Part shown: in pieces, positions 4,884-47,161 of the stretch
Position numbering within the stretch: the first letter of the stretch is position 1
How the letters are laid out: each line of letters begins with the position of its first letter
Origin: Vampirovibrionales bacterium
Lineage (GTDB): Bacteria > Cyanobacteriota > Vampirovibrionia > Vampirovibrionales > JAJTHC01
DNA: 64,000 nt
Assembly (NCBI GenBank): GCA_046341215.1
Contig: JBKDRU010000005.1
Location: 79,233-143,232 of the forward strand
Direction: 5' to 3'
Position numbers and translations under genes: made by a program
The notes under the pieces: generated by a model
The model's database searches: none
Told to the model about the DNA's origin: nothing
Seen by the model: the letters and a program-made list of their open reading frames with translations, nothing else

Positions 4884-4975
4884 TGAATGGGGGTCATTTC
4901 TATCGAACAGTATACATGGATTGGATACCTGTACAATAACGGAAATGCCTCAAAAAAGCAAGCAAAAAATACGAT

Positions 4976-9124: not shown

Positions 9125-9163
9125 AAGGATAAGGTTCCCTGTTTTTTGGATGTTTCGCTCCGT

Positions 9164-9300
9164 TTTTAGCTGGTCGTCGTCAGAGACCTTTGCTCCGCCA
9201 AAGGTCTCCAACACCTCTAAAGGCGGTTCAAGGGGGGACGGGGAAGGACGTATTGCGTTTCTCCTCCCCTTCGTCCCCCCTTGAAAATCCCCCCTGAATC
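9164..9300 (+). repeat. Truncated copy (A) of a hairpin-rich repeat element, relative of 41465..41695
   Basis: About 120 bp (9167..9283) are near-identical to the reverse complement of 41580..41695. The matching blocks are TAGCTGGTCGTCGTCAGAGACCTTTGC, ..CAAAGGTCTCCAACACCTCTAAAGGCGGTTCAAGGGGGGACG.. and ..CGTCCCCCC. Only one terminal repeat is retained. It lies just downstream of the selO stop. Confidence 0.8.
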
Positions 9301-9451
9301 CCCACCTCGTCGCATCATTCCTTTGCACGACGTCCGCAAAATCGCTCGGGGATTCGCAATTCGCTCACCCGCTCGGATTTAGTGCTTGGACGCCTGCTGG
9401 TGCAACGATCCTTTAAATCAACAATTTTATCTAAAAAAGGAAATTCTAAAG

Positions 9452-16402: not shown

Positions 16403-16439
16403 GTGGCGGACTACTTGCTTTCAGATAAAAGGGAGAGGT

Positions 16440-17009
16440 TTAAAATAGCCACTCATTCTTTTTATCGGTGTATGGGTCTTCACTACTGTTGCGCATTGTG
16501 GTGAAAAGTGTATCCAAAGTCGTAGGTGTGTGGAGTACTTGCTTTTTATCAATAGAGAGTGTATTTAGTAAATGCTTACTAATGTGCGTTTCTATTATTC
16601 CCATTTCTTCCAATTTACTTGTTAGGGGATAGGTCAACATATTTTTTGGGTAGGCTAGAAGTTGGTAATTGTTAACATCGAGTCCTGTTCTGCCCTTCTC
16701 TCGTATACGAAATCTGAAGGGAAAATAGGGATTTTCAGGCTCAATCCCATAGATTGACTTATAACCCCTACGTGAAGCCCTATACATATTTGAAACACTA
16801 ATACCCCTAATAAATTCCTTATCATAAGTATCTACTATACGTTGTACGGCAGCCTCCCAAGTTTCTTGAGGAATGTGGGCTACCTCCTTAAAAACGGTTA
16901 CCCCTTCACGTTGTGTATTTGAGCGTTTGGAAGGAGAGAGAGACGGAGAAGCATAGAGGGGAGGAGCCTTTAATTTCATGAGAAAAACCTTTCGAAAATC
17001 AGGGGTCAT
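16440..17009 (-). CDS. Hypothetical ORFan (189 aa)
   Basis: The ATG start was verified. No motif was recognised. It looks markedly AT-richer than its flanks by eye. It lies 66 bp downstream of the radical SAM gene on the same strand. Confidence 0.4.
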   Translation of the reverse strand: MTPDFRKVFLMKLKAPPLYASPSLSPSKRSNTQREGVTVFKEVAHIPQETWEAAVQRIVDTYDKEFIRGISVSNMYRASRRGYKSIYGIEPENPYFPFRFRIREKGRTGLDVNNYQLLAYPKNMLTYPLTSKLEEMGIIETHISKHLLNTLSIDKKQVLHTPTTLDTLFTTMRNSSEDPYTDKKNEWLF

Positions 17010-17075
17010 AAAAATAATAACATTGATATATTAATAATACTATCTAAAAAATACTTGTCAATACTCTGATTTTCT

Positions 17076-25517: not shown

Positions 25518-25546
25518 AGGCTCTACCATTAAACCCAAGATCTACT

Positions 25547-27415
25547 CTACTTTGTGGTAGCGTTAGATGAAGTTTCTTCAGGCTTTGGCGGAGCATCCTT
25601 CGCTTTTTTGAAACGATATTCGGTTTCGGTGACCACTTGATTCAACCATACAGGGAAAAAGCCAATAACCGCAGCCACTAAAACGTAACCAATCGAATCG
25701 ATAGGGGATCTCATATTACGTGCCGATTCAGATAAAATACGACGAACCTCTAAGGATTCAAGCGTTGGGAGCTTCAACGTCTTCTTGACCCAATCTAAAG
25801 CAGGTAAGGGTACCTTCGTGCCTAAAAAGTTAAACGACGCTTTTAAGTGCTTTGCCCCATCGCTTTGAAGGCGTTTAATTGTGGCATCCAAGGCATCGAC
25901 TTCTTTCATCGCACTGGCAGAATACGTATACATGGCTTTAAAGTGCTTTAAAACGCCTTGTCCATGTGAAGAATTTAAGACATCCAACACGTTTTGACCT
26001 GCTCTTAAGGCAGCCACGCTATCTTCTAATTGAGTAAAATGCTCATTTTTCAGGGTATTAAAGACTTGCGAATAGCTTAGCGCTTTACCGTCTTTGGATT
26101 TAGGATGGGTGGCCATGACTTTTTGGGTGCAGACATCGATAAAATGTTGATAGTTCAGGGCTTTGTCTGCCATGAGGTTAAAGGCAGTGATGTCACCTTT
26201 TTGCATAGCCAAATCTAAATGCCCTTTGAAAGTGGCGTAATCAGGGGTTTGTGTCGCTGCTTTTAAATAGGCTTTTTCTTTAGGAAGTTCCCCAAGCAAG
26301 GCTTCTTCTTGAATCTTTTTGTGAAGACCTTGAAGATCATCGGCGACGATTTCTTTTAAGGCCTTAAGCGTGATGTGTTCTACCGCAAAGTCTTTGTCTA
26401 AACCCTTGAGTTCAAATAAGCGACGAATCAAGGTATCGGGATCCGTATTAAGGGTGGCACGACGCATCGTCTTCGTTCCTTGTTCAAGGGAAAGCTCGTT
26501 AATCGCATCGTAGAAATGGGTGCTTAAATGTGTTTTTGCGGTGCCTACGTCTTGCGTATGAGCAATCATTTTACGCCCCCCACTATGAAGCGCATCGATC
26601 ATTTGAAGCATAAAGCGAGCCTTTGCTTTTTCATCCATCGACGCTTGGGGATTGTTCAATGTTTTCAAAAATCGCGTCGTTTCCGTTTGCCAAAGCGGGT
26701 AAGCTTGAAGGTAATCTTCCATAGGTTTGGCTAAATTACTATTCGCTTTATGCATGGCTGCAAGTTTAGCCAACGTTTCTGGTGCATTGGGGGTAAGGTT
26801 ATAAATTTCTTTAATTTGCTGATAAGTAATCGAATGAACTGGCTTACGAGGGTTTAAGCTTCCGTGCATGAGCATTAGATTGGTATGCTTAGGGCTTTTA
26901 CCTAAGCTGAATAAGGTGCCGTCTTTTTGTTTTTTAGCCAGCATCGCATGCTTAACAGGCTCTAACGCAAACAAGAACAGTGAAATAGACAACACATCCC
27001 GAATAAGCACATCTCGAATTGCACGGTAATCACGCCCTTCAGCTATACCGTCATTATCTTCATCGATTTCAGGCGCTCTGAGGTATTCAGAATGCATACG
27101 AGCAGGCATCATCGAACCAAAGAACATTAAAATCATGAAGCTCAAAGGCAACCTGGGAATAATTACCCCAAAGAGTTCAGGTGTTTTTTCAAATTTGGCA
27201 AATTCCACACTGTCCGTGAGTAGGGACGTCATTTTTGCAGTAGTCATTTGCACCGCTTTCGATGCTGGGTTGGATGTATTTCGAGCCTGAGCATTTAGGC
27301 GATCCGAAAAGTTCTTGCCTTTAATAGGAATACTTTTCACGTCATGGTAATAAAAGTGATTCAGGGCATCCACAAAGCCATTATTGTTGTAAGGGGATTT
27401 ATTAGACATCATCAT
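25547..27415 (-). CDS. Large hypothetical membrane-associated protein (622 aa), second gene of a two-gene operon
   Basis: The start is MMMSNKSPYNNNG, which is Ser/Asn-rich. Hydrophobic segments lie near residues 85-105 and 575-595. Its ATG overlaps the stop of the upstream gene (ATGA). Confidence 0.6.
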   Translation of the reverse strand: MMMSNKSPYNNNGFVDALNHFYYHDVKSIPIKGKNFSDRLNAQARNTSNPASKAVQMTTAKMTSLLTDSVEFAKFEKTPELFGVIIPRLPLSFMILMFFGSMMPARMHSEYLRAPEIDEDNDGIAEGRDYRAIRDVLIRDVLSISLFLFALEPVKHAMLAKKQKDGTLFSLGKSPKHTNLMLMHGSLNPRKPVHSITYQQIKEIYNLTPNAPETLAKLAAMHKANSNLAKPMEDYLQAYPLWQTETTRFLKTLNNPQASMDEKAKARFMLQMIDALHSGGRKMIAHTQDVGTAKTHLSTHFYDAINELSLEQGTKTMRRATLNTDPDTLIRRLFELKGLDKDFAVEHITLKALKEIVADDLQGLHKKIQEEALLGELPKEKAYLKAATQTPDYATFKGHLDLAMQKGDITAFNLMADKALNYQHFIDVCTQKVMATHPKSKDGKALSYSQVFNTLKNEHFTQLEDSVAALRAGQNVLDVLNSSHGQGVLKHFKAMYTYSASAMKEVDALDATIKRLQSDGAKHLKASFNFLGTKVPLPALDWVKKTLKLPTLESLEVRRILSESARNMRSPIDSIGYVLVAAVIGFFPVWLNQVVTETEYRFKKAKDAPPKPEETSSNATTK

Positions 27416-32646: not shown

Positions 32647-35283
32647 TTAAACGGCTTTTTTGGAAGGCGTTGGCTTTTGAGTCAAGGCATACATCAACGC
32701 GGCTTCTTGAGGCGTCAGTTGCTTGGGTACGTTTGTCGCTTGTGAAGCCGTCGGGTTTTTCGCCTGTTGAGCCAAGGCGTATAACAAGGCGGCTTCCTTG
32801 GGGTCAATGTCTCGAACCTTTTTTGTGCCAGCCAAACGATAGGCTTCTTCGATTTGGGCAGGCGTCAAGGTGATTTTTTCTTTTGTGGACGCTTCAGGAT
32901 ATTTGGCAATTAAGGCAATATCTTCTTTTTTAATCGAACTAAACTCGCGATCTTTAATCGCTTTAAGGGTTTCTCTAGCTTTGTCACGCTCTTCGTATTC
33001 GACCAAATACGTGGGTTTGCCCACAGTCTTGTCTTGAATCGTTTCCACCCCTTTACGTAGTTTGCCTGCTAAGAGGAGTTGACCTCCCAGTCCAATGATA
33101 ACACCCGCCCCTGTCAACCAGTGAAAGCCTGCCACGACAAAGGGGAGTTTAAAGCTCGTCAAATAATGCCCCCCCATCAGCTTACCCAAACGATTGCCTC
33201 GGTTCAAGAACACCATCAACTGATGACCACCGATCATCGGCAAGGCAATGCCTAAACAGGCTCTTAAACCTGCTTTAATTTGTTCACCCAAGACAAAGGG
33301 CTTTTCAGCAGGCTTTTGGACTTCAGTGGTTTTAGCGTCTTTACTTTGAGGCTTGGCTTGGACGTTGTCTGGGACGTTGGCTTGAAGAGGTGGCGTAGAC
33401 TTTGCTTGGGGCGCTTTTGTTTTAGACGGCTTACCTGCGGCCATAAATGCCGCCCAGCCCGTACTAAAGGCGGTCACGGCTCCTAAGAAGAACATTAGAT
33501 ATCTTGGTTGAGCTAAACTCTTCAGCATACCAAGCAGCGGATTATGACCCCCCTTGCTCAAGTCAGACATCGCTATGGCTTTCTTTTTCAAGACTTCTTC
33601 AGGCTGTTCATGCAAGGCAAACTTTGCCATATCAATGACGCCACGCCACACGGAAGCCACACCACGTCCTAAACCACTCACGCCCCACGCTTCAGAAAGT
33701 TCTTTCTGATTATGAATGAATTGTTCATGTTCAGAGATGTTTTGCATTAAACGTTGAATCGAACGTGGCAAGACATCGTGGAGTTTTTTAAAGGCTGTTA
33801 AACTTTTTTGAGCATGGTTACTAAACTCCCCATTGAGTTTAAAGAAATCATTCACCGTCATTTTCTTCGAAGGATCTAACGCTGCAATGTGTTTTTCAAC
33901 CGCTTCTTTGCCCAACAAAGCTTCCCAATGGGCTTGATTACGGGTGATTTCTTGCAGAGCCGTGCTTCTTAATTCTACGAGCTTCGCTTCAGGTGTGAAA
34001 ATTTTAGAAAAATAACGACTGAATGGCAGGACTAAATTTTTATCCCCCACCTTTTTTAAACGAAAAATAGACGATTGTATATCTTTAACTTGAAGCAACT
34101 GGGGGTTATGTTCCAACGCCTTAACTTGTGCAGGCGTCATAGATTTGGCGGTATCGATATTCATATGTTCGGGCGACCAGAACCAACGCTGTCCTCCCTT
34201 GTAAAGGTCTGAATGAATTTGGTGTAAATAGGCGTGCTTCACGCTCGGCGGATTGACTCCGTTTACATACGCAATGACGGCTTTTTGAAGTTCTTTGACG
34301 GCGTCTGAATCATTAGGCGCACCTTCTAAAATAACCTTCATTTGTTGAGGACACTGTTGAATAAAATCATCAAACTGAGTTAAATATTCAGGATTCTTAT
34401 CTCTTCCCAAAACACTCAGGAGTTTGGATTTGGAGAATTTTGACATCGCTTCAGGCGAACCAGACGCCTTAGCGTTCGCTAAGGCTTCTTCAAATACGGC
34501 TTTAAAGTGATGATAGAGGTTTTGGTCTAACGCCTTATTTTCCTTGCCTTGGGTTAAAAAGCCTTTGGCATCTGCTTCAAGGAAGGGGTTCATCAACGTC
34601 GTAGTCACATGCCGATGCTGTTCAGGCGTCATGATTTGTTCAAAACGTTCGTAATAATCGTGATGGGTAGTCGCTTCTTTCAGCGTTTGATGCAAGTTGT
34701 TATAATGGGCAATATAGCGTTCTATCAAAGAATCGGGAGCAAGAGTTACCCCTGTTTTAAGCTTATTGGCCGTCGCATTGAAGGCATGTTCATGATTGCC
34801 AAGCCAATAACGGTTGTATTCATCGGAAGGCAGGTCGCCTAGGTACGCACGCATCCATGTAGGCAAGTTTTTAAAACTACCTTCTTTAGGCGTCCAGCCA
34901 TCTATCCATCTGGCGAAACCTCCCAAAAGGGTATTATGCGCGGTTTTTTTATTAAGGGGATTAATGGTTCCTAAGTTGGGATCCAAGCCCGCCAAGCGAT
35001 TAGCGATATTCGTAAACGCCAATAGAGAAACGAGTCCTAAGCCAATAGCAGCGCCTTTTTCGGGGTAAGACAAGCGTTCAGACGATTCTGGATCCATGAA
35101 CTGCATGGTCAGTGCAAGATCAAAGGCCTTTTTAGCCAACGAATCGCCTACTTCTCCCGCGTTTTCAAGTTGTTGTTGAACTTGATCTTGAGCGTTGTTT
35201 TGCACGTTTTTCATGGCTTGTAAGTGATTTGAATTTGTCGGAAAGTTCGGACTGCTTGATGAACTGGTATTAATCGATGCCAT
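32647..35283 (-). CDS. Large hypothetical protein (878 aa) with internal hydrophobic segments and C-terminal tandem repeats
   Basis: The N-terminus is Ser/Asn/Thr-rich (MASINTSSSSSPNFPTNSNH). There are three hydrophobic stretches, including a ~60-aa Gly-rich double-helix-like segment. The C-terminus carries two tandem copies of the motif (P/T)xEAAL(L/M)YAL(A/T)Q. Confidence 0.6.
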   Translation of the reverse strand: MASINTSSSSSPNFPTNSNHLQAMKNVQNNAQDQVQQQLENAGEVGDSLAKKAFDLALTMQFMDPESSERLSYPEKGAAIGLGLVSLLAFTNIANRLAGLDPNLGTINPLNKKTAHNTLLGGFARWIDGWTPKEGSFKNLPTWMRAYLGDLPSDEYNRYWLGNHEHAFNATANKLKTGVTLAPDSLIERYIAHYNNLHQTLKEATTHHDYYERFEQIMTPEQHRHVTTTLMNPFLEADAKGFLTQGKENKALDQNLYHHFKAVFEEALANAKASGSPEAMSKFSKSKLLSVLGRDKNPEYLTQFDDFIQQCPQQMKVILEGAPNDSDAVKELQKAVIAYVNGVNPPSVKHAYLHQIHSDLYKGGQRWFWSPEHMNIDTAKSMTPAQVKALEHNPQLLQVKDIQSSIFRLKKVGDKNLVLPFSRYFSKIFTPEAKLVELRSTALQEITRNQAHWEALLGKEAVEKHIAALDPSKKMTVNDFFKLNGEFSNHAQKSLTAFKKLHDVLPRSIQRLMQNISEHEQFIHNQKELSEAWGVSGLGRGVASVWRGVIDMAKFALHEQPEEVLKKKAIAMSDLSKGGHNPLLGMLKSLAQPRYLMFFLGAVTAFSTGWAAFMAAGKPSKTKAPQAKSTPPLQANVPDNVQAKPQSKDAKTTEVQKPAEKPFVLGEQIKAGLRACLGIALPMIGGHQLMVFLNRGNRLGKLMGGHYLTSFKLPFVVAGFHWLTGAGVIIGLGGQLLLAGKLRKGVETIQDKTVGKPTYLVEYEERDKARETLKAIKDREFSSIKKEDIALIAKYPEASTKEKITLTPAQIEEAYRLAGTKKVRDIDPKEAALLYALAQQAKNPTASQATNVPKQLTPQEAALMYALTQKPTPSKKAV

Positions 35284-35483
35284 AAGAAAAACCTTTATGC
35301 GTTAGCATGCCCCCTTCGTGAAAGTGACGAAGGGATGTCTATATACAAGCATTAACACAAATTCTACTCTACTTGTTGCTAGTGAAAAGGTGAGGGGGGC
35401 TCAAAAGATGTCAGATCCCCTTATCCGTTTTGACGAATTTAATCGATTTAAGCCTGTTAGATGTAAAGATACAGGTCATTTCC

Positions 35484-35622
35484 GACACACGAAACCCCTG
35501 TTTTTGACACACGAAACCCCTGTTTTTGACACACGAAACCCTCTTTTCTGACACACGAAACCCTCTTTTCTGACACACGAAACCCTCTTTTCTGACACAC
35601 AAAACTCTCTTTTTTGACACAC
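35484..35622. repeat. Tandem array of 22-bp direct repeats (6 full units plus a partial 7th)
   Basis: The units are 2x GACACACGAAACCCCTGTTTTT, 3x GACACACGAAACCCTCTTTTCT, 1x GACACACAAAACTCTCTTTTTT, then GACACAC. Each unit ends in a T5-6 tract. The array sits in the 616-bp divergent intergenic region 35284..35899. Confidence 0.9.
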
Positions 35623-35962
35623 ACTCACGACGGGAAAGAGAGGGAAAGGGCTCCCAAAGGAGCCAAAAGGGTCGGTTTTTAAGGAGCTACTCTTCTTCAT
35701 TATGACCGCAATTTAAAGCCTTGCCTAGTGACGAAACACCATGTTTTTCTTCGAAGTAAGTGAATTCATAAAATGAGATTGTTTTTTTAATATAACAATT
35801 TGTTAACATTTAGCAATTCGTAGCTTTATAAATTGTTTATTAAAGCATAAGACACAAATAAAGTTCTTTTGTCTAAATACCCCCAAAACTAGCTTTTCGT
35901 TGCTCTATTTATTCTTCTTTATTAAATTTCCCTGTACACCTCACATGAAAGGATCACTTAAG

Positions 35963-37207
35963 ATGATTTCTCTTAATCCAAATAACCCTTGGTTGCCTAA
36001 TAACCAACAACCCCCTTACGATTTAGCCACCACCTCTCCCTATCCATCTGCGTACCCTGCTTTAGGGACTCCCGCTCAAAATACGTATGCTGTAGGAGCA
36101 ACCTATGGGCAAAATACTTCTGGCTGGGATACCTATCAAGCTCCGTATCAAGCTCCGTATCAAGCTCCAGCTGCAAATACATTGCTCGCCACGAATACCC
36201 AGACTTACACGAATGCCCCTACTACGATTACTGAGAAAACGTATGCCCCTGATACGAGAATCTATGCCCCTGAAATCACCTACAATTATATTACGAAGAC
36301 TTTTGAATATAAGCCTACCATCACACACGAAGCAGCTCCAGCTCCAGTGTATCCACCTCCAGTGCCCCCCCCAGCTCCAGTGTATCCAGATCCGCCTAAG
36401 ATTGAGCTTCCTAAAATTCAATATCCACCTCAAGAGTCTAAGAAAAAAGAAGGGACAAACTGGTTGCCTTGGCTTATAGGAGGAGGAGGAATCCTCGCCG
36501 CCCTCTTCTTGCCTAAACTTTTCGGCAAGAAAGATAAAGTTGAAGCCAAAGCGGAAGCCAAAGCTGAAGCAACGGTTACGGCTACGCCTGAAGCTGTTGA
36601 AGAAAAATCTGAAACACCCGCTAAAAAAGACACGGTTTACACCAAGCTTGAAATCAACGCTCACGGAGATCCTATTTTTGTGACACGCAATAGTCTAGGT
36701 GAAGTTACTAGACAAGAAGAAGTCAAAAGTGGCGTAGTCTTTGAAGACGGCAACTCTTCTTTAAGCGTTCAAATGGACAGCCAAGATCCTAAGAACGTTT
36801 TTATGAAAAGCTTTAGCTATACAGTCGATGGTAAAACCGTTCAAGGTGATTCTAAAGGTAACGTTACCGTTGGCGGAAAATCCGTTGCGGTGGGTTCTAG
36901 TGCAGAACTGCCAAATGGCGGTACGGTCACGGTTTCTAAAGAAGACGGCACTTCTATCGGTGGCTTTAAAAATCAGTCTAAGATCGAAATTAAATCCCCG
37001 AACGAATCGGGTAATGGTTATGAAAACATTACTTTACATGCTCGTAAAAACAAACGTGGTTTAATCATGTACGAGTTTAATGCTAGTAAAAAATCTGAAG
37101 CCTCGAATACTGCTGAACGTGTCAAAAATGGATTTGTAAAAAAAGCCTTTGATAAAGAATATAAAAATCAAGGGGTGGATGATACCCCTGTCACCGATAA
37201 AAAATAG
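35963..37207 (+). CDS. Repetitive Pro-rich, single-pass membrane/surface protein (hypothetical)
   Basis: The ORF opens at 35900, and the likely start is MISLNPN at 35963. It has YQAPYQAPYQAP and PAPVYP repeats, one transmembrane segment (WLPWLIGGGGILAALFLP), an (EAKA)n run and a ~230-aa C-terminal domain. Confidence 0.5.
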   Translation: MISLNPNNPWLPNNQQPPYDLATTSPYPSAYPALGTPAQNTYAVGATYGQNTSGWDTYQAPYQAPYQAPAANTLLATNTQTYTNAPTTITEKTYAPDTRIYAPEITYNYITKTFEYKPTITHEAAPAPVYPPPVPPPAPVYPDPPKIELPKIQYPPQESKKKEGTNWLPWLIGGGGILAALFLPKLFGKKDKVEAKAEAKAEATVTATPEAVEEKSETPAKKDTVYTKLEINAHGDPIFVTRNSLGEVTRQEEVKSGVVFEDGNSSLSVQMDSQDPKNVFMKSFSYTVDGKTVQGDSKGNVTVGGKSVAVGSSAELPNGGTVTVSKEDGTSIGGFKNQSKIEIKSPNESGNGYENITLHARKNKRGLIMYEFNASKKSEASNTAERVKNGFVKKAFDKEYKNQGVDDTPVTDKK

Positions 37208-41442: not shown

Positions 41443-41464
41443 TTTTGGATTTCTAGCTTTTTTT

Positions 41465-41695
41465 GTAGCTGGTCGTTGTCAGAGACCTTTGCTTTCTAGC
41501 TTTGGCTAGCTCCGTTTAACGCTGGTGCTTGGGGGTCTTTGTGCCGCCAAAGACTCCCCAAACCCCCAAAGCGGCTTAAGGGGGGACGAAGGGGAGGAGA
41601 AACGCAATGCGTCCTTCCCCGTCCCCCCTTGAACCGCCTTTAGAGGTGTTGGAGACCTTTGGCGGAGCAAAGGTCTCTGACGACCGACCAGCTAC
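41465..41695. mobile_element. 231-bp MITE/REP-like element with 28-bp terminal inverted repeats (copy B, full length)
   Basis: The left terminal repeat is GTAGCTGGTCGTTGTCAGAGACCTTTGC (41465-41492). The right terminal repeat is GCAAAGGTCTCTGACGACCGACCAGCTAC (41667-41695). Inside are hairpins (GGGGTCTTTG...CAAAGACTCCCC) and the G-rich/C-rich palindrome GGGGGGACG...CGTCCCCCCC. Its right half is the reverse complement of 9167..9283. It encodes no ORF. Confidence 0.8.
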
Positions 41696-41786
41696 AAAAG
41701 GAGATAGAAATCCAAGAAACATAACACACCATATCCATAAAATACGATATAATAGACGTATCTCGTTTTTTTAAAGGTCACCCCTC

Positions 41787-42873: not shown

Positions 42874-44160
42874 TTACTTACGCTTCGTTGCCAAGGCTTT
42901 ATTCAGCTTCTCCTGCTTTGCCCAAGACGCCGAGGCGTCTTTTAAGGCTTGCTTAAAGGCAGGTTCCACATAAGCAGGGGGCATGTAACGTTTCACCCAC
43001 CCGATCGCTGTTTGCCGAGCCTTCGCATCATTCAGCAAAATATCCACACCTGCCCCCTTATCTGGGTACAAACTCAAGGATTTCACCGCTTCCGTAATAC
43101 GAAAGAGCTTTTGCGTGTCCGCATAACTCATTTGTTCGCTTTGGCTTGCCATGTATAAAATGGGTACATGGCTATTCATTACCGAAAGAATGGGACTGAT
43201 TTTCTTAGTTTCCAGCCTCGCACCGATGCTCACCACCGCTTTGAGATGCACATCTTTTTCGGCAGCTCTCACCAATAAGGCATTGGCGCTAATGCCTTCG
43301 GCGATGATCGCCATTTTTTGAGGCAGCACTTCTAAAGGGAATTTTTCTGCATCCAGTTCAGGGTGCTTAAAGTAATGTTCCACCCGTTTAAAGTCTTTGG
43401 TGAGTTGCGTCCAATCGGGTTGGGTGAAAATACGCCACGATTTTACGCCTCCGTATGCCAAGCCTTCACTGATGCCATGCCCTCGTACGTCTAAAAGCAA
43501 GACGGCATAACCTGCTTTGACTAAATCAGGCACCAAGAATTGCAAGCGTTTGCCTGAAGACGACAAGCGATGCGTCACCACTACCAAGGGGTATCGATAG
43601 CTGGGTAAAGGGCGAGCAGGCGGGGCTTTAGGCTTGGCAGGGCTTTCACCTTCTTCACCTTCAGCGTCTTCACCTTCTTCTGCACTGGCTTCTTCTTCGG
43701 GAGCCTCTTCTTCAGCGACGTCTTCCCCTTCTTCTCCTTCAGCAGGTGCGACCGCTTCGACAGGGGGCTTGGCTTTCAAGGCTTGCACTTCGCCATAAGG
43801 GCTATATAAATCCCCTTGTAAAACAAAGCCATCTACAGTCGTCCAGCTTAATCGGGTGGGGTGGTAGTCTTCGGCAAGCGTGTATCTTAAATGTGTTTCA
43901 ACAGGCGGTGGAGGCGGGGGAGCAGGCTTTTTAGTTTCACCCTCTTCGCCTTCTTCTTCACCCTCTTCGCCTTCAGCTTCAGCGTCTTCTCCTTCTCCTT
44001 CTCCTTCAACTTCTTCAGAACCTTCTTCTACAGGCGGTTTCGATCCAGGTAATTCGCATCCGCTTAAAAAAACAGGAACGCTCGTTGCCAAAAACAACAG
44101 TAGCAGGACACTAGAGCGTCCTACGATTTTTAAGAAACTGTCTAAAAAAGAGCGGTTCAT
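42874..44160 (-). CDS. Lipoprotein, alpha/beta-hydrolase fold with poly-acidic Glu/Gly/Ala linkers
   Basis: A lipobox LSGC follows a hydrophobic signal when the start is taken at MNRSF (44160); the ORF extends to 44238. There are two low-complexity acidic tracts (EEVEGEGEGEDAEAEGEEGEEEGEEGE and GEEGEDVAEEEAPEEEASAEEGEDAEGEEGE). The C-terminal part has an alpha/beta-hydrolase-like core (LLLDVRGHGISEG). Confidence 0.55.
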   Translation of the reverse strand: MNRSFLDSFLKIVGRSSVLLLLFLATSVPVFLSGCELPGSKPPVEEGSEEVEGEGEGEDAEAEGEEGEEEGEEGETKKPAPPPPPPVETHLRYTLAEDYHPTRLSWTTVDGFVLQGDLYSPYGEVQALKAKPPVEAVAPAEGEEGEDVAEEEAPEEEASAEEGEDAEGEEGESPAKPKAPPARPLPSYRYPLVVVTHRLSSSGKRLQFLVPDLVKAGYAVLLLDVRGHGISEGLAYGGVKSWRIFTQPDWTQLTKDFKRVEHYFKHPELDAEKFPLEVLPQKMAIIAEGISANALLVRAAEKDVHLKAVVSIGARLETKKISPILSVMNSHVPILYMASQSEQMSYADTQKLFRITEAVKSLSLYPDKGAGVDILLNDAKARQTAIGWVKRYMPPAYVEPAFKQALKDASASWAKQEKLNKALATKRK

Positions 44161-44258
44161 GGCGATGTTCCATGTTATGATGGTGGAAACTACTTCCTTC
44201 TTCGACTCTAAAAACACGCCGATACACCCGCCCCCCACAAGTAGAGGAGTCCCTTCTT

Positions 44259-44696
44259 TTGTCTTTCACCCATTCTCTATGGCAGACTTTTAATCAGCTT
44301 CCTGCGTGGCTTTTATTGAGTTTAGGTGCTTGCCTAGGAGCCTTTGCCCGTTACGGATTCACTCGCTTGTTTTCCCTTGAATGGCAAGGCATTTTGGGGA
44401 TTAACCTACTGGGATGCTTAGGCTTTGGCATCGGACTAGGGTTGACAATCGCCCTGCCTGAACGATTCGGCACGCCTGCCTTTCGGCTCTTTTTTCTAAC
44501 AGGGTGCATGGGTGCGATGACGACCTTTTCTAGCTACATGTTTAATATTTACCAAGCCCTTAACACAAGTCCCACCCCAGCTTGGGGGACGCTACTTTTA
44601 AACATCGCCTTGCAACATGGCTTAGGTCTCGTCCTGCTCGCCTTTGGCGTATGGATGGTACCTAGACTATTAAGACTGTTTATACCCTTACCTTAA
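44259..44696 (+). CDS. crcB: Fluoride ion channel CrcB/FluC
   Basis: A four-transmembrane small protein with the CrcB signature LGACLGAFARYGF. It has a TTG start with a GAGGAG ribosome-binding site 10 nt upstream. It overlaps the flgL stop convergently by 9 bp. Confidence 0.7.
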   Translation: MSFTHSLWQTFNQLPAWLLLSLGACLGAFARYGFTRLFSLEWQGILGINLLGCLGFGIGLGLTIALPERFGTPAFRLFFLTGCMGAMTTFSSYMFNIYQALNTSPTPAWGTLLLNIALQHGLGLVLLAFGVWMVPRLLRLFIPLP

Positions 44697-45599: not shown

Positions 45600-45792
45600 A
45601 ATGGGGTATACTCTCTCTACATTGATGTCTCTCTACCTTATAGCATGACAAAGGCGATGGAGGATTACATCCACACAGCGATGTATTTTGTAGAATTGAG
45701 GTCGACCCCTGTACAGAAAAACTCAAGCCTACTATAATTACCTATATCCAAATAAGATTAAAAGAAGTAGTTTTTTCCAGGAGTTAACGCCA

Positions 45793-46896
45793 TTGTCTTC
45801 CAACACACTCAGCCTTTGTATGATTTGCAAAAATGAAGAGAACACGATCGGTCACTTGCTGGATTCTGTTCAAGGTGATTTGTTTGATCAAATTGTCGTG
45901 TGTGATACAGGTTCCACAGACGACACGTTAAACGTGCTAAAATCATACAATGTGCAAATAGAACATTTTGACTGGATTGACGACTTTAGTGCCGCTCGAA
46001 ATTTTTCGTTTTCAAAAGCGACCGGTGACTATATTATGTGGTTAGATGCGGATGATTATATTACACCTCAATACTACCAACAATTGTTAGAACTTAAGAA
46101 AAGGCTCCATGAATTTTCAATATGGCTATTAAAATATGAATATGCCTTTGACGAATACGGCAATTCACAGGCTTCTTTTTTTCGAGAACGTATTGTTAAA
46201 CGTGATTTAAACTTACAGTGGAATGAACCCATTCACGAATACCTCAAAATTGAACATCCTTATACACAAATAGATATAGAGATTCATCATCATAAAAAAG
46301 AACACCATACGGAACGAAATCTCTCTATTCTTGAAAAAATTGTACAAAACAGACCTCATGAAGCTCGTAATATTTATTATTTAGGTAAAGAATACTGTGA
46401 TGCTAAAAATACAGAAAAAGGCATTTCTTATCTAAAACGCTTTGTTACGATGCCTGATGCATGGTCTGAAAATAAGTATGAAGCGTTCATTAGAATTGCA
46501 GATTATGAAAGATCTTGTTTTAATGAAAAAGAAGTGAAATATTATTTATATGAAGCCATTAAAGAAGTTCCTTTAAAGACAAAAGCCTATTATTATTTAG
46601 GGAACTTGGCTTTGGATCGTTGTGAATATGATGAAGCTTTACATTGGTACAACCTTTGTATTTCAATGAAGCGACCAGCTAAAGCGATTGATATGGTAGA
46701 AAATCACTTTAATACATGGTTTCCTTATCTTCAAATATGCGTGGTTTATGATCGACAAGGGCTTTATAGAGAAGCCGCTATTGCGAATGAAAAAGCCATG
46801 CGGTTTCGACCTAATGATCCACTTATGCAAAAAAATAAAGCGTATTTTTCAAGTCGGCTCAAAGAAAAATATCCTCTTCCACAAGAAATCGTTTGA
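45793..46896 (+). CDS. Family 2 glycosyltransferase with C-terminal TPR repeats
   Basis: A GT-A fold N-domain is present (LSLCMICKNEE, VVCDTGSTDDT, DxD-like WLDADDYI), followed by TPR-like repeats. It has a TTG start with a CAGGAG ribosome-binding site. Confidence 0.7.
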   Translation: MSSNTLSLCMICKNEENTIGHLLDSVQGDLFDQIVVCDTGSTDDTLNVLKSYNVQIEHFDWIDDFSAARNFSFSKATGDYIMWLDADDYITPQYYQQLLELKKRLHEFSIWLLKYEYAFDEYGNSQASFFRERIVKRDLNLQWNEPIHEYLKIEHPYTQIDIEIHHHKKEHHTERNLSILEKIVQNRPHEARNIYYLGKEYCDAKNTEKGISYLKRFVTMPDAWSENKYEAFIRIADYERSCFNEKEVKYYLYEAIKEVPLKTKAYYYLGNLALDRCEYDEALHWYNLCISMKRPAKAIDMVENHFNTWFPYLQICVVYDRQGLYREAAIANEKAMRFRPNDPLMQKNKAYFSSRLKEKYPLPQEIV

Positions 46897-47161
46897 TTTC
46901 TTGTGGAAGCTCTGCAAAAGGGCGAGATCGTCATTGCGAACTTGTGTGAAGTAATCGGTTCAGACTTATACACGCAAGGGCTAAGCAATGTTGCTACGCT
47001 ACGTTTGCAATGACGGTCTGTTTTGGACTTTACAACTGTTTTTATACGAAATGTAACAAACACTAGCACAAAAGGAAGCACTCTTTGCCTTTATGCTATT
47101 ACAAAGGCTTTGAATCAAACAAAACACTTTTTTTAAGGGATTAAATAGGAAAAAAACGATT

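Follow-up and report, generated by a model that had tools for sequence, protein, structure and literature searches.

The 64,000-nucleotide stretch of Vampirovibrionales DNA studied here (hereafter the window) is chromosomal in setting, with genes for MraW, a VTT-domain protein, superoxide dismutase (SOD), GlgB and an epimerase as well as tRNA genes nearby, and this work deals with a tandem array of 22-bp units at its positions 35484-35622 and with the modular element (~35460-35748) to which that array belongs. On the + strand of the window, which is the strand that reads GACACAC, the array consists of six full units head to tail followed by a seventh GACACAC, i.e., 6.3 units: two copies of GACACACGAAACCCCTGTTTTT, three of GACACACGAAACCCTCTTTTCT and one of GACACACAAAACTCTCTTTTTT, and then the GACACAC at 35616-35622. 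Two genes flank it and lie outside the element, an open reading frame (ORF) of 878 amino acids on the left, divergent from the array (32647-35283, - strand), and one of 414 amino acids on the right (35963-37207, + strand). Tandem Repeats Finder returns 35479-35622 with a period of 22, 6.5 copies and 93% matches, and its score of 214 is by far the strongest of 37 rows in the window. Direct reading and program thus agree that the array is real, and the blocks of two, three and one unit variants described in an initial annotation are exact. The tract of five or six Ts that was said to close every unit is another matter, since units 3-5 finish in TTTTCT and the 3′ end of the unit across the family is TTTYY. 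The 616 bp given for the intergenic gap hold if the downstream frame starts at the TTG at 35900; with the in-frame ATG at 35963 the gap is 679 bp.

Comparison with the other copies found (see below) shows the order of modules in the element: a head unit, four to ten 22-bp units, a degenerate tail unit, a variable spacer with an optional hairpin module, and a conserved tail, here called module B. The head of the window copy (35460-35483, + strand) marks the left boundary of the element and is a variant first unit, GATGTAAAGATACAGGTCATTTCC, with TGTAAA in place of GACACAC. In 13 of 57 arrays the motif T[AG]TAAA[AG]A, found in the window at 35462-35469, precedes the first GACACAC by exactly 21-23 nt (or 44 nt), where ~0.009 would be expected per 60 nt, and because of this fixed one-unit distance the head is itself a variant unit in which TGTAAA or TATAAA stands for GACACAC. 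Arrays that begin 0-25 nt past the stop codon of the upstream gene have no head.

The degenerate last unit and the variable spacer occupy 35616-35674 (+ strand) and include a 6-bp hairpin, GGCTCC-CAAA-GGAGCC, at 35649-35664. The window spacer is common to the orthologous array of the closest metagenome-assembled genome (MAG), locus L037, and to a paralog, L014, in the same MAG. Of the two flanking hairpins proposed earlier, that at 35311-35335 stands (8-9 bp stem, -13.7 kcal/mol, z = -3.7); the second reduces to this 6-bp stem at 35649-35664, and the 50-nt segment that contains it folds no better than shuffled sequences. Spacers across the family measure 37-60 nt in their shortest forms and up to ~390 nt in the longest, and often hold either an inserted, co-oriented long hairpin (‘element A’) or independent palindromes resembling repetitive extragenic palindromes (REPs). 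Element A is the optional hairpin module: 15 of its 19 copies adjoin a listed array, always in the same orientation; of the other four, two accompany arrays that lie at contig ends, and two have no array anywhere near.

Module B of the window (35675-35748, + strand; TTTTTAAGGAGCTACTCTTCTTCATTATGAC ... GCCTAGTGACGAAACACCATGTTTTT) is the sole copy in the 64 kb and is found by nhmmer at 35671-35757 (E = 2.5e-19). It measures 75-85 bp across the family, with the consensus TTTTCAAGGAGCCACTCTTTTTCAGTATGAC, about four variable nucleotides, TTTTCAA, about seven variable nucleotides and GCCTAGTGCCTAAAACCCACGATTTTT, and wherever sequence downstream of an array is available it is almost always present and in the same orientation. 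A strict regular expression recovers it at 48 loci, and of the five loci missed at first, three turned out, once read, to have a diverged copy; in 0.49 Mb no first block of the module was found standing alone. Non-orthologous copies of the element, aligned within a subfamily, become similar at the head and remain so as far as the T-run that closes module B. In one locus, L032 (3173-3604, minus strand), an ORF of 143 amino acids is inserted between array and module B, with a weak ribbon-helix-helix match (RHH_1, E = 0.17, under the Pfam cut-off) and no other copy in the fetched loci.

The units themselves are far from uniformly variable. Their consensus over 59 arrays and 346 units is G1 A2 C3 A4 C5 A6 C7 R8 A9 A10 A11 C12 C13 C14 N15 N16 N17 T18 T19 T20 Y21 Y22 (i.e., GACACAC-R-AAACCC-NNN-TTTYY), in which at least 16 of the 22 positions are near-invariant: positions 3, 5, 10 and 11 never vary, position 19 differs in 3 of 286 units, positions 15-17 are nearly free, and outside these three there is variation also at positions 8, 21 and 22. 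Of 286 units, between 0 and 184 depart from the consensus at a given position, and the heterogeneity among positions 8-22, which played no part in finding the units, is extreme (chi-square 938, p about 1e-191). Most unit positions are, then, under strong position-specific constraint. As for the number of units, arrays have 3-11 GACACAC starts, 41 of the 54 complete ones have 6-8 (i.e., five to seven full units), and the median span is 137 bp. A 21-bp variant, GACACAC-GAAA[TCG]TCGATTTYY, is present in 31 arrays, typically as the first unit.

These other copies were found by scanning one genome per species (185,579 species, 596 Gb) with the pattern GACACACNAAACNCNNNTTTNNGACACAC, which covers two units with 22 specified bases and which, by our arithmetic, should match ~0.07 times by chance in so much DNA. 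It matched 61 loci, all in five related MAGs, four of them labelled Vampirovibrionales and one Gammaproteobacteria, with 19, 15, 11, 10 and 6 loci per MAG as lower bounds; the window comes from a sixth genome, closely related to these five. In the window the 12-mer GACACACGAAAC occurs six times in phase within the array, and only three further matches with two mismatches exist in the 64 kb. With the 12-mer nearly confined to the array, and with 61 loci matched by the two-unit pattern where ~0.07 were expected, the window array is not a chance feature. The initial annotation would have taken a motif with no other genomic copies as speaking against its reading of the array; there are none elsewhere in the window, and there are many in related genomes.

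Beyond these genomes the family is hard to find. Neither the unit pattern nor the module B pattern matches any of 2.9 million viral contigs, BLAST detects no similarity to phages, and the single marginal 61-nt match to a plasmid, of Mesorhizobium, is taken as chance. The module B pattern retrieves from the metagenomes of the Joint Genome Institute (JGI) mostly chance matches in coding DNA and only four further true members, at least some of them seemingly from freshwater, judging by sample identifiers that were not looked up. No degenerate remnants of the element were found by nhmmer elsewhere in the window, and no description of the unit sequence, or of repeats in Vampirovibrionales, was found in the literature. 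The family is apparently undescribed, and apparently restricted to a small group of freshwater Vampirovibrionales. Contigs in the Logan assemblies of SRR31514765-8, DNA-like in character, match the window at ≥99.9% and one of them stops inside the array, which is the expected break of a short-read assembly; in public assemblies, consulted for copy number at the level of strains, the only contigs that encode the window's proteins end within the array or fall short of it.

The one apparent exception in taxonomy deserves comment. The MAG named ‘Gammaproteobacteria bacterium Sample-107-S80-bin-40’ (contigs JBEISK0100000xx, a subset of L011-L064) carries syntenic DNA 87-98% identical to the window, and the repeat family of the four Vampirovibrionales MAGs is found in it as well; its NCBI label is probably wrong.

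Once orthologous copies are set side by side, the contrast between the sequence of the units and their number becomes clear. Relative to L037, the upstream intergenic DNA of the window is 98.0% identical, the spacer with module B 95.7% and the downstream intergenic DNA again 98.0%, and the neighbouring genes are ~93.5% (878-aa ORF), 95.5% (SOD) and 74% (414-aa ORF) identical; the L037 array has 8.3 units, partly of different variants, against the 6.3 of the window. The suggestion that the array behaves as a variable number tandem repeat (VNTR) is thereby borne out. At least 11 loci are common to two or three MAGs, which shows that some element sites are kept between species, and their arrays differ by whole units or unit pairs, i.e., by 22 or 44 bp (e.g., 9 versus 7 GACACAC starts in L011 and L017). 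Unit number and type shift in 22- or 44-bp steps and at a far higher rate than the flanks. Adjacent units are identical in 16% of pairs, and units at i and i+2 in 23%, compared to 0.6% for units of different arrays; single units or pairs of them are therefore still being duplicated locally. Slipped-strand mispairing or unequal recombination would account for these changes of length.

At two sites whole elements, too, are present in one genome and absent from another. At L009 and L061 the mfd stop codon and a convergent radical-SAM gene exactly bracket a complete element, whilst the window has at this site (16403-17070) ~640 bp of unrelated DNA; similarly, L012 has an element after its flagellin gene and the window counterpart (44239-44687) is unrelated DNA. 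The L014 paralog has the spacer hairpin of the window type, with 85% identity over 240 nt, and in one MAG five of the six loci agree in three features, an inverted unit within the head, a tail of their own type and a variant module B. From such derived features, common to paralogs within a genome, it follows that whole-element copying to new sites, or conversion between copies, has occurred. Two side observations concern these regions: in the mfd/radical-SAM gap the window has a minus-strand ORF of 189 amino acids (16440-17009) with no Pfam or NCBIfam match, and near the flagellin gene it has a 1.35-kb segment (45694-47041), with a gene for a GT2 glycosyltransferase-TPR protein (45793-46896), that is absent from the syntenic L012.

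The genes next to the arrays are unrelated housekeeping genes. In an all-against-all BLASTP of 100 flanking proteins only cross-MAG orthologs group, and the Pfam families represented are as varied as CrtC-like, SpoU methylase, Tmk (thymidylate kinase), Ffh, ProC, Lgt, DnaE, NUDIX, release factor, PdxJ, RlmH, FliR, GmrSD and enzymes of histidine and menaquinone biosynthesis; no gene family tied to the arrays recurs among the neighbours. The 43 loci with two called neighbours comprise 15 convergent, 12 and 11 tandem and 5 divergent arrangements. Upstream genes are co-oriented with the array at 27 of the 43, and about half of these end within 25 nt of it, their stop codons commonly standing at a distance of -1 to 25 nt from unit one; where the downstream gene is convergent, its stop codon is often inside the last 20 nt of module B. 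The sites are independent of the identity and orientation of the neighbours, with a bias to gene 3′ ends, and the divergent setting of the window locus is the rare case in the family. Bias to 3′ ends and avoidance of divergent promoter regions are equally features of repeats of the REP, BOX and bacterial interspersed mosaic element (BIME) types.

Several possible contents of the element could be set aside. The array is not coding, as its period of 22 is no multiple of three and stop codons rotate through the frames. A mini-ORF in module B (AAGGAG, 15 nt, ATG) was rejected too, the spacing being too long, the stops variable and the ATG missing in one subfamily. Sigma-70 promoters within the units were considered for the perfect TTGACA at the unit junctions, which proves peculiar to the window variants, the family junction being YY+GACA, and on the plus strand the candidates in units or module B are poor. 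By every test applied the element is not a structured RNA: Rfam gives no match at gathering or E-value thresholds; RNAalifold returns an empty consensus structure for 48 copies of module B on both strands; a mutual-information scan finds no nested covarying helices; the conceivable pairing of GAAA with TTTC within a unit (positions 8 and 21) shows no covariation; and the plus-strand RNA of the array is practically unfolded (-8.6 kcal/mol over 139 nt, z = -0.9), with folding z-scores from -0.9 to +1.35, save -2.4 for the G/U-rich minus strand of the array. The array is no CRISPR (clustered regularly interspaced short palindromic repeats) array, for it has neither spacers nor cas genes; none of the latter appears among the flanking genes of ~55 loci, and the single Cas-related domain match, Cas3-like_C in Mfd, is under the Pfam cut-off and reflects no more than weak, generic similarity among helicases. 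A CRISPR leader with its repeats does resemble the element in having a conserved module of fixed orientation beside the array and a degenerate terminal repeat; here, though, the units abut and have only about three free positions, and it is the unit nearest to the module that is degenerate. Nor is the element a classical miniature inverted-repeat transposable element (MITE), having no terminal inverted repeats.

What the array does seem to have is curvature. Bending was modelled over ~1,280 segments of 159 bp with two kinds of wedge, one given by a dinucleotide set of the Trifonov type and the other by AA/TT steps only, and for the segment centred on the array the predicted ratio of end-to-end distance to contour length is 0.61 with the first and 0.78 with the second, the medians for the window being 0.955 and 0.964; none of the ~1,280 segments is predicted to be more curved than the array by the first model, and 0.4% are by the second. 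The models therefore support the earlier prediction of bent DNA, ranking the array as the most, or nearly the most, curved 159-bp segment, with the caveat that an exact repeat of about two helical turns amplifies any bend of its unit.

In our interpretation, to which we give a probability of about 0.6, the window array forms the tandem part, variable in length, of a single member of a lineage-restricted family of modular interspersed repeats that do not code for protein, and its units serve as recognition sites. Its two parts differ in strength, the classification as a dispersed modular repeat being much more secure than the protein-binding step. Each unit would be the recognition site of a sequence-specific factor, most likely a DNA-binding protein, because constraint is contiguous over ~14 bp plus the TTT, because the sites recur every two helical turns, and because curvature is predicted, array length is near 140 bp and no RNA fold is supported. 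With a spacing of 22 bp, bound sites would lie on nearly the same face of ~140 bp of curved DNA, favouring cooperative binding or wrapping, and module B would be a second recognised component of the element. The constraint may serve the host, in a structural role like that of BIMEs or in a role at gene 3′ ends, or may merely serve the element's own spread. Any effect on the two neighbouring genes of the window would be incidental.

Among known systems, the nearest in design is BOX of Streptococcus pneumoniae, built as boxA-boxB(n)-boxC with a repeated unit of 45 bp. Like the 22-bp element, BOX is dispersed, non-coding, intergenic and modular, has an internal module in variable tandem number beside conserved end modules, and exists in many copies per genome within a narrow lineage and without a transposase of its own. 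On the other hand, the unit here is 22 bp and not 45 bp, there is no sequence similarity, and the 22-bp element has one conserved end module (B) and a variant head unit, with ends that are not complementary and no stable RNA fold predicted. The REPs and BIMEs of enterobacteria resemble it in preferring gene 3′ ends and convergent regions and in being mosaics of optional modules, and differ in that their unit is an imperfect palindrome, whilst ours is a direct, non-palindromic 22-mer with no linked gene of the REP-associated tyrosine transposase (RAYT) type. BIMEs bind the host proteins IHF, gyrase and Pol I, which is the kind of role we would attribute to the 22-bp element. Mycobacterial interspersed repetitive unit (MIRU) VNTRs share the interspersed, intergenic position in the core genome, ends that touch or overlap stop codons and variable copy number; MIRU units, however, measure 40-100 bp and may carry small ORFs for translational coupling, as opposed to 22 bp and a module B here. 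Two traits of this descriptive class are found here, dispersed intergenic copies in one lineage and a modular build with a variable tandem module; Rfam, BLAST against phages and plasmids, and the literature show no homology to any described interspersed-repeat family. On these class comparisons the family is best described as an interspersed modular repeat of the BOX/BIME/MIRU kind that shares sequence with none of them.

As for recognition, the closest parallels are the plasmid iterons (R6K gamma, whose origin has seven 22-bp iterons, pPS10, and the 22-bp repeats of the Chlamydia plasmid), ParR/parC and the heptad arrays bound by omega. What they have in common with the 22-bp arrays is direct repetition at a spacing of 22 bp, or two helical turns, in several in-phase copies, with strong constraint fitting cooperative protein binding and with predicted bending. 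Unlike iterons and centromeres, the 22-bp arrays are chromosomal and at many sites; neither rep nor par genes adjoin them, a DnaA box and a DNA-unwinding element are missing, and their sequence is not similar. The proposal of an iteron-like array of binding sites can accordingly be divided: recognition sites are plausible and the conservation is strongly position-specific, whilst the tests for a plasmid-type iteron origin fail.

Several points weigh against the interpretation as a mobile, protein-bound repeat. Boundary alignments of non-orthologous copies reveal no terminal inverted repeats between head and module B end, no target-site duplication is visible at seven boundaries, no transposase was found, and both orthologous sites that lack the element carry unrelated DNA in its place and not a clean empty site. 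Mobility is inferred from presence/absence differences and paralog subfamilies alone, and gene conversion or segmental duplication could yield the same patterns. The census draws on 8-kb loci from fragmented MAGs, found by a pattern that demands consensus units, so that copy numbers are minimal and diverged relatives may have escaped it, and the values of the wedge models behind the predicted curvature are approximate. Finally, an unstructured, C-rich transcript of the array (32% C, 11% G) may have a role at the level of RNA.

This last point leads to the first of the alternatives, namely that each copy is a non-coding RNA locus, like a CRISPR leader with its repeats and yet spacerless: module B, or else the head, would supply the promoter, and the repetitive RNA made from the array would serve as a sponge for proteins or undergo processing. 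A candidate promoter on the minus strand of the window's module B (TAGGCA-17-CATAAT, 35727-35699) emerged from a promoter scan, as a lead only and with a weak consensus match; across the family a minus-strand YATAMT (the reverse complement of AGTATG), with invariant A2 and T6, stands 17 nt downstream of TAGGCR. The head, moreover, has TATAAA or TGTAAA where GACACAC would be expected, at the distance of one unit from the array, a run of Ts closes module B, and the composition and lack of folding of the plus-strand RNA would suit such a sponge. Against this, neither units nor module B show an Rfam match, consensus structure or covariation, TAGGCG, the -35 in the consensus of the family, is a poor one, the resemblances to promoters are weak, many arrays abut the upstream stop codon without any head, and there are no spacers, cas-like or other conserved neighbour genes. 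We consider such a locus unlikely, and the earlier suggestion that the array is part of a small RNA finds no support in structure, covariation or Rfam.

It is tempting to go further in the opposite direction and speculate that the arrays are not merely a selfish repeat, and are instead iteron-like platforms maintained by the host, on which a lineage-specific protein would coat the 6-8 in-phase sites and wrap ~140 bp of DNA at the ends of genes or operons. Module B could then be a fixed second contact, and the whole a dispersed bacterial ‘chromatin’, an insulator or a titration system. Maintenance by the host is suggested by the narrow length distribution together with the invariant positions in orthologous copies kept across species; even so, we rate these platforms as a tentative idea of low probability.

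Another alternative, close to the scaffold suggested in the initial annotation, is that the array is particular to this locus, i.e., a set of iteron-like or upstream-activating sites that would tune the 878-aa and 414-aa genes, with copy number as a contingency switch. The local picture does invite it: the two genes diverge from the intergenic region that holds the array, a site resembling a promoter of the 878-aa gene (35388-35361, minus strand) has the array ~100-240 bp upstream of it, the DNA of the array is predicted to be curved and its copy number is unlike that of the ortholog. The non-repeat intergenic DNA (35284-35483 and 35761-35962) is, in addition, 98% identical between species, which exceeds the flanking genes, and is likely to be real promoter/operator DNA of the two genes. 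What speaks against the scaffold is the rest of the family. The array with its tail module is also found at 60 or more other loci by unrelated neighbours, and because the same element stands at so many sites by unrelated genes it is not a control region made for the gene pair of the window. Only 5 of 43 loci lie between divergent genes, and 15 between convergent ones, where no promoter is needed; module B intervenes between the array and the downstream gene; and the perfect TTGACA junctions of the window are not kept in the family. A locus-specific scaffold is therefore quite unlikely.

The bias to gene 3′ ends suggests yet another role, in which the C-rich, G-poor array would be, within transcripts that read through it, a Rho-loading or terminator-type signal, or a stabiliser of the mRNA end, for the upstream gene. 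The 27 of 43 co-oriented upstream genes, about half of them ending within 25 nt, the convergent sites as the commonest class and the unstructured array RNA would fit this. Yet 16 of the 43 upstream genes, that of the window included, point away from the array, so the orientation is not obligatory; minimal spacers have no canonical intrinsic terminator; and the invariant unit sequence and the coupled module B would be left unexplained. To our knowledge cyanobacteria lack Rho. We regard a signal of this sort as very unlikely.

Scarcely credible, finally, is the idea that the chromosome has captured an iteron origin of the plasmid or chromid type, or else a centromere for partition: the geometry is there (direct repeats of 17-22 bp at ~22-bp spacing, here with period 22 and 6.3 copies, head to tail in sets of ~5-8, and predicted curvature), but with no Rep, Par or other conserved neighbour gene, no DnaA box TTATCCACA with ≤1 mismatch in 35284-35962, at least 6-19 copies per genome on ordinary chromosomal contigs, and BLAST returning nothing in phages and one marginal plasmid match, membership in this class is largely refuted.

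The two genes beside the window array have some features of their own. The 878-aa ORF, labelled an ORFan earlier, has no Pfam or NCBIfam match; it is not a strict ORFan, being kept in L037 at the nucleotide identity given above. Its upstream region has at 35354-35382 a 29-nt motif, AAC(C/A)CAA(G/A)(A/T)TCTACTCTACTT(T/G)T(G/T)G(T/C)TAG, which recurs at 25532-25560 with 79% identity and may be a shared promoter element. The 414-aa ORF, likewise without Pfam or NCBIfam match, has a Pro/Tyr/Gln-rich N-terminus, a single hydrophobic segment and a C-terminal domain, and its gene carries a perfect 12-bp × 2.9 coding repeat (YQAP) at 36134-36168. Its alignment with the L037 ortholog contains 136 gap positions, at 74% identity as against 98% in the adjoining intergenic DNA and 95.5% in the SOD gene; this membrane-type protein looks to evolve fast, and is possibly exposed. 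Past module B, an A+T-rich stretch (35734-35934) resembles the promoter region of the 414-aa gene, and the A+T-rich downstream part of the intergenic DNA, with its palindromes of the AACAATTTGTT type, is recognisable also in the more distant L039.

Other repeats were encountered in these genomes. A MITE-like element of 271 bp with 31-nt terminal inverted repeats (ends of the TTGGATTTCTAGC...GCTAGAAATCCAA type) lies at 41445-41715 between glgB and the epimerase gene, with a second copy near 9144-9410 (a 107-nt stretch is 99% complementary) and copies of 81-95% identity in related MAGs (L005, L023, L027, L033 and L048). The REP-like palindrome CCCTCTCCTAAAATTAGGAGAGGG is abundant in L019, L026, L027, L030, L032, L033, L058 and others, often as doublets ~100 nt apart (e.g., L032 at 17/114 and 5556/5654) in the manner of REPINs (REP doublets forming hairpins); it is mostly independent of the arrays, sometimes within their spacers, and not present in the window. 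Another, short palindromic motif, CTATCGAACACTATAG, which may be a transcription-factor site or another small repeat, is found in intergenic DNA at 4900 of the window and in L008, L013, L025, L042 and others; over 0.49 Mb it has 21 matches when up to two mismatches are allowed. Degenerate repeats of 9, 15, 21 and 27 bp (CTTCACCTTC...) at 43638-44048 lie within the gene of a 454-aa alpha/beta-hydrolase (minus strand), where they encode an acidic low-complexity stretch.

In conclusion, what looked like a single-locus curiosity becomes a defined element family with a clear anatomy, in a barely studied and largely uncultured lineage of non-photosynthetic relatives of the cyanobacteria. That the number of units turns over fast, whilst at least 16 of their 22 positions hardly vary, would point, as far as sequence can tell, to a specific binding partner. 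In practice, the arrays break short-read assemblies, and as VNTRs they could help to type strains of these bacteria. If the element does have a function for its host, it would be a new example of the domestication of repeats at the 3′ ends of genes.

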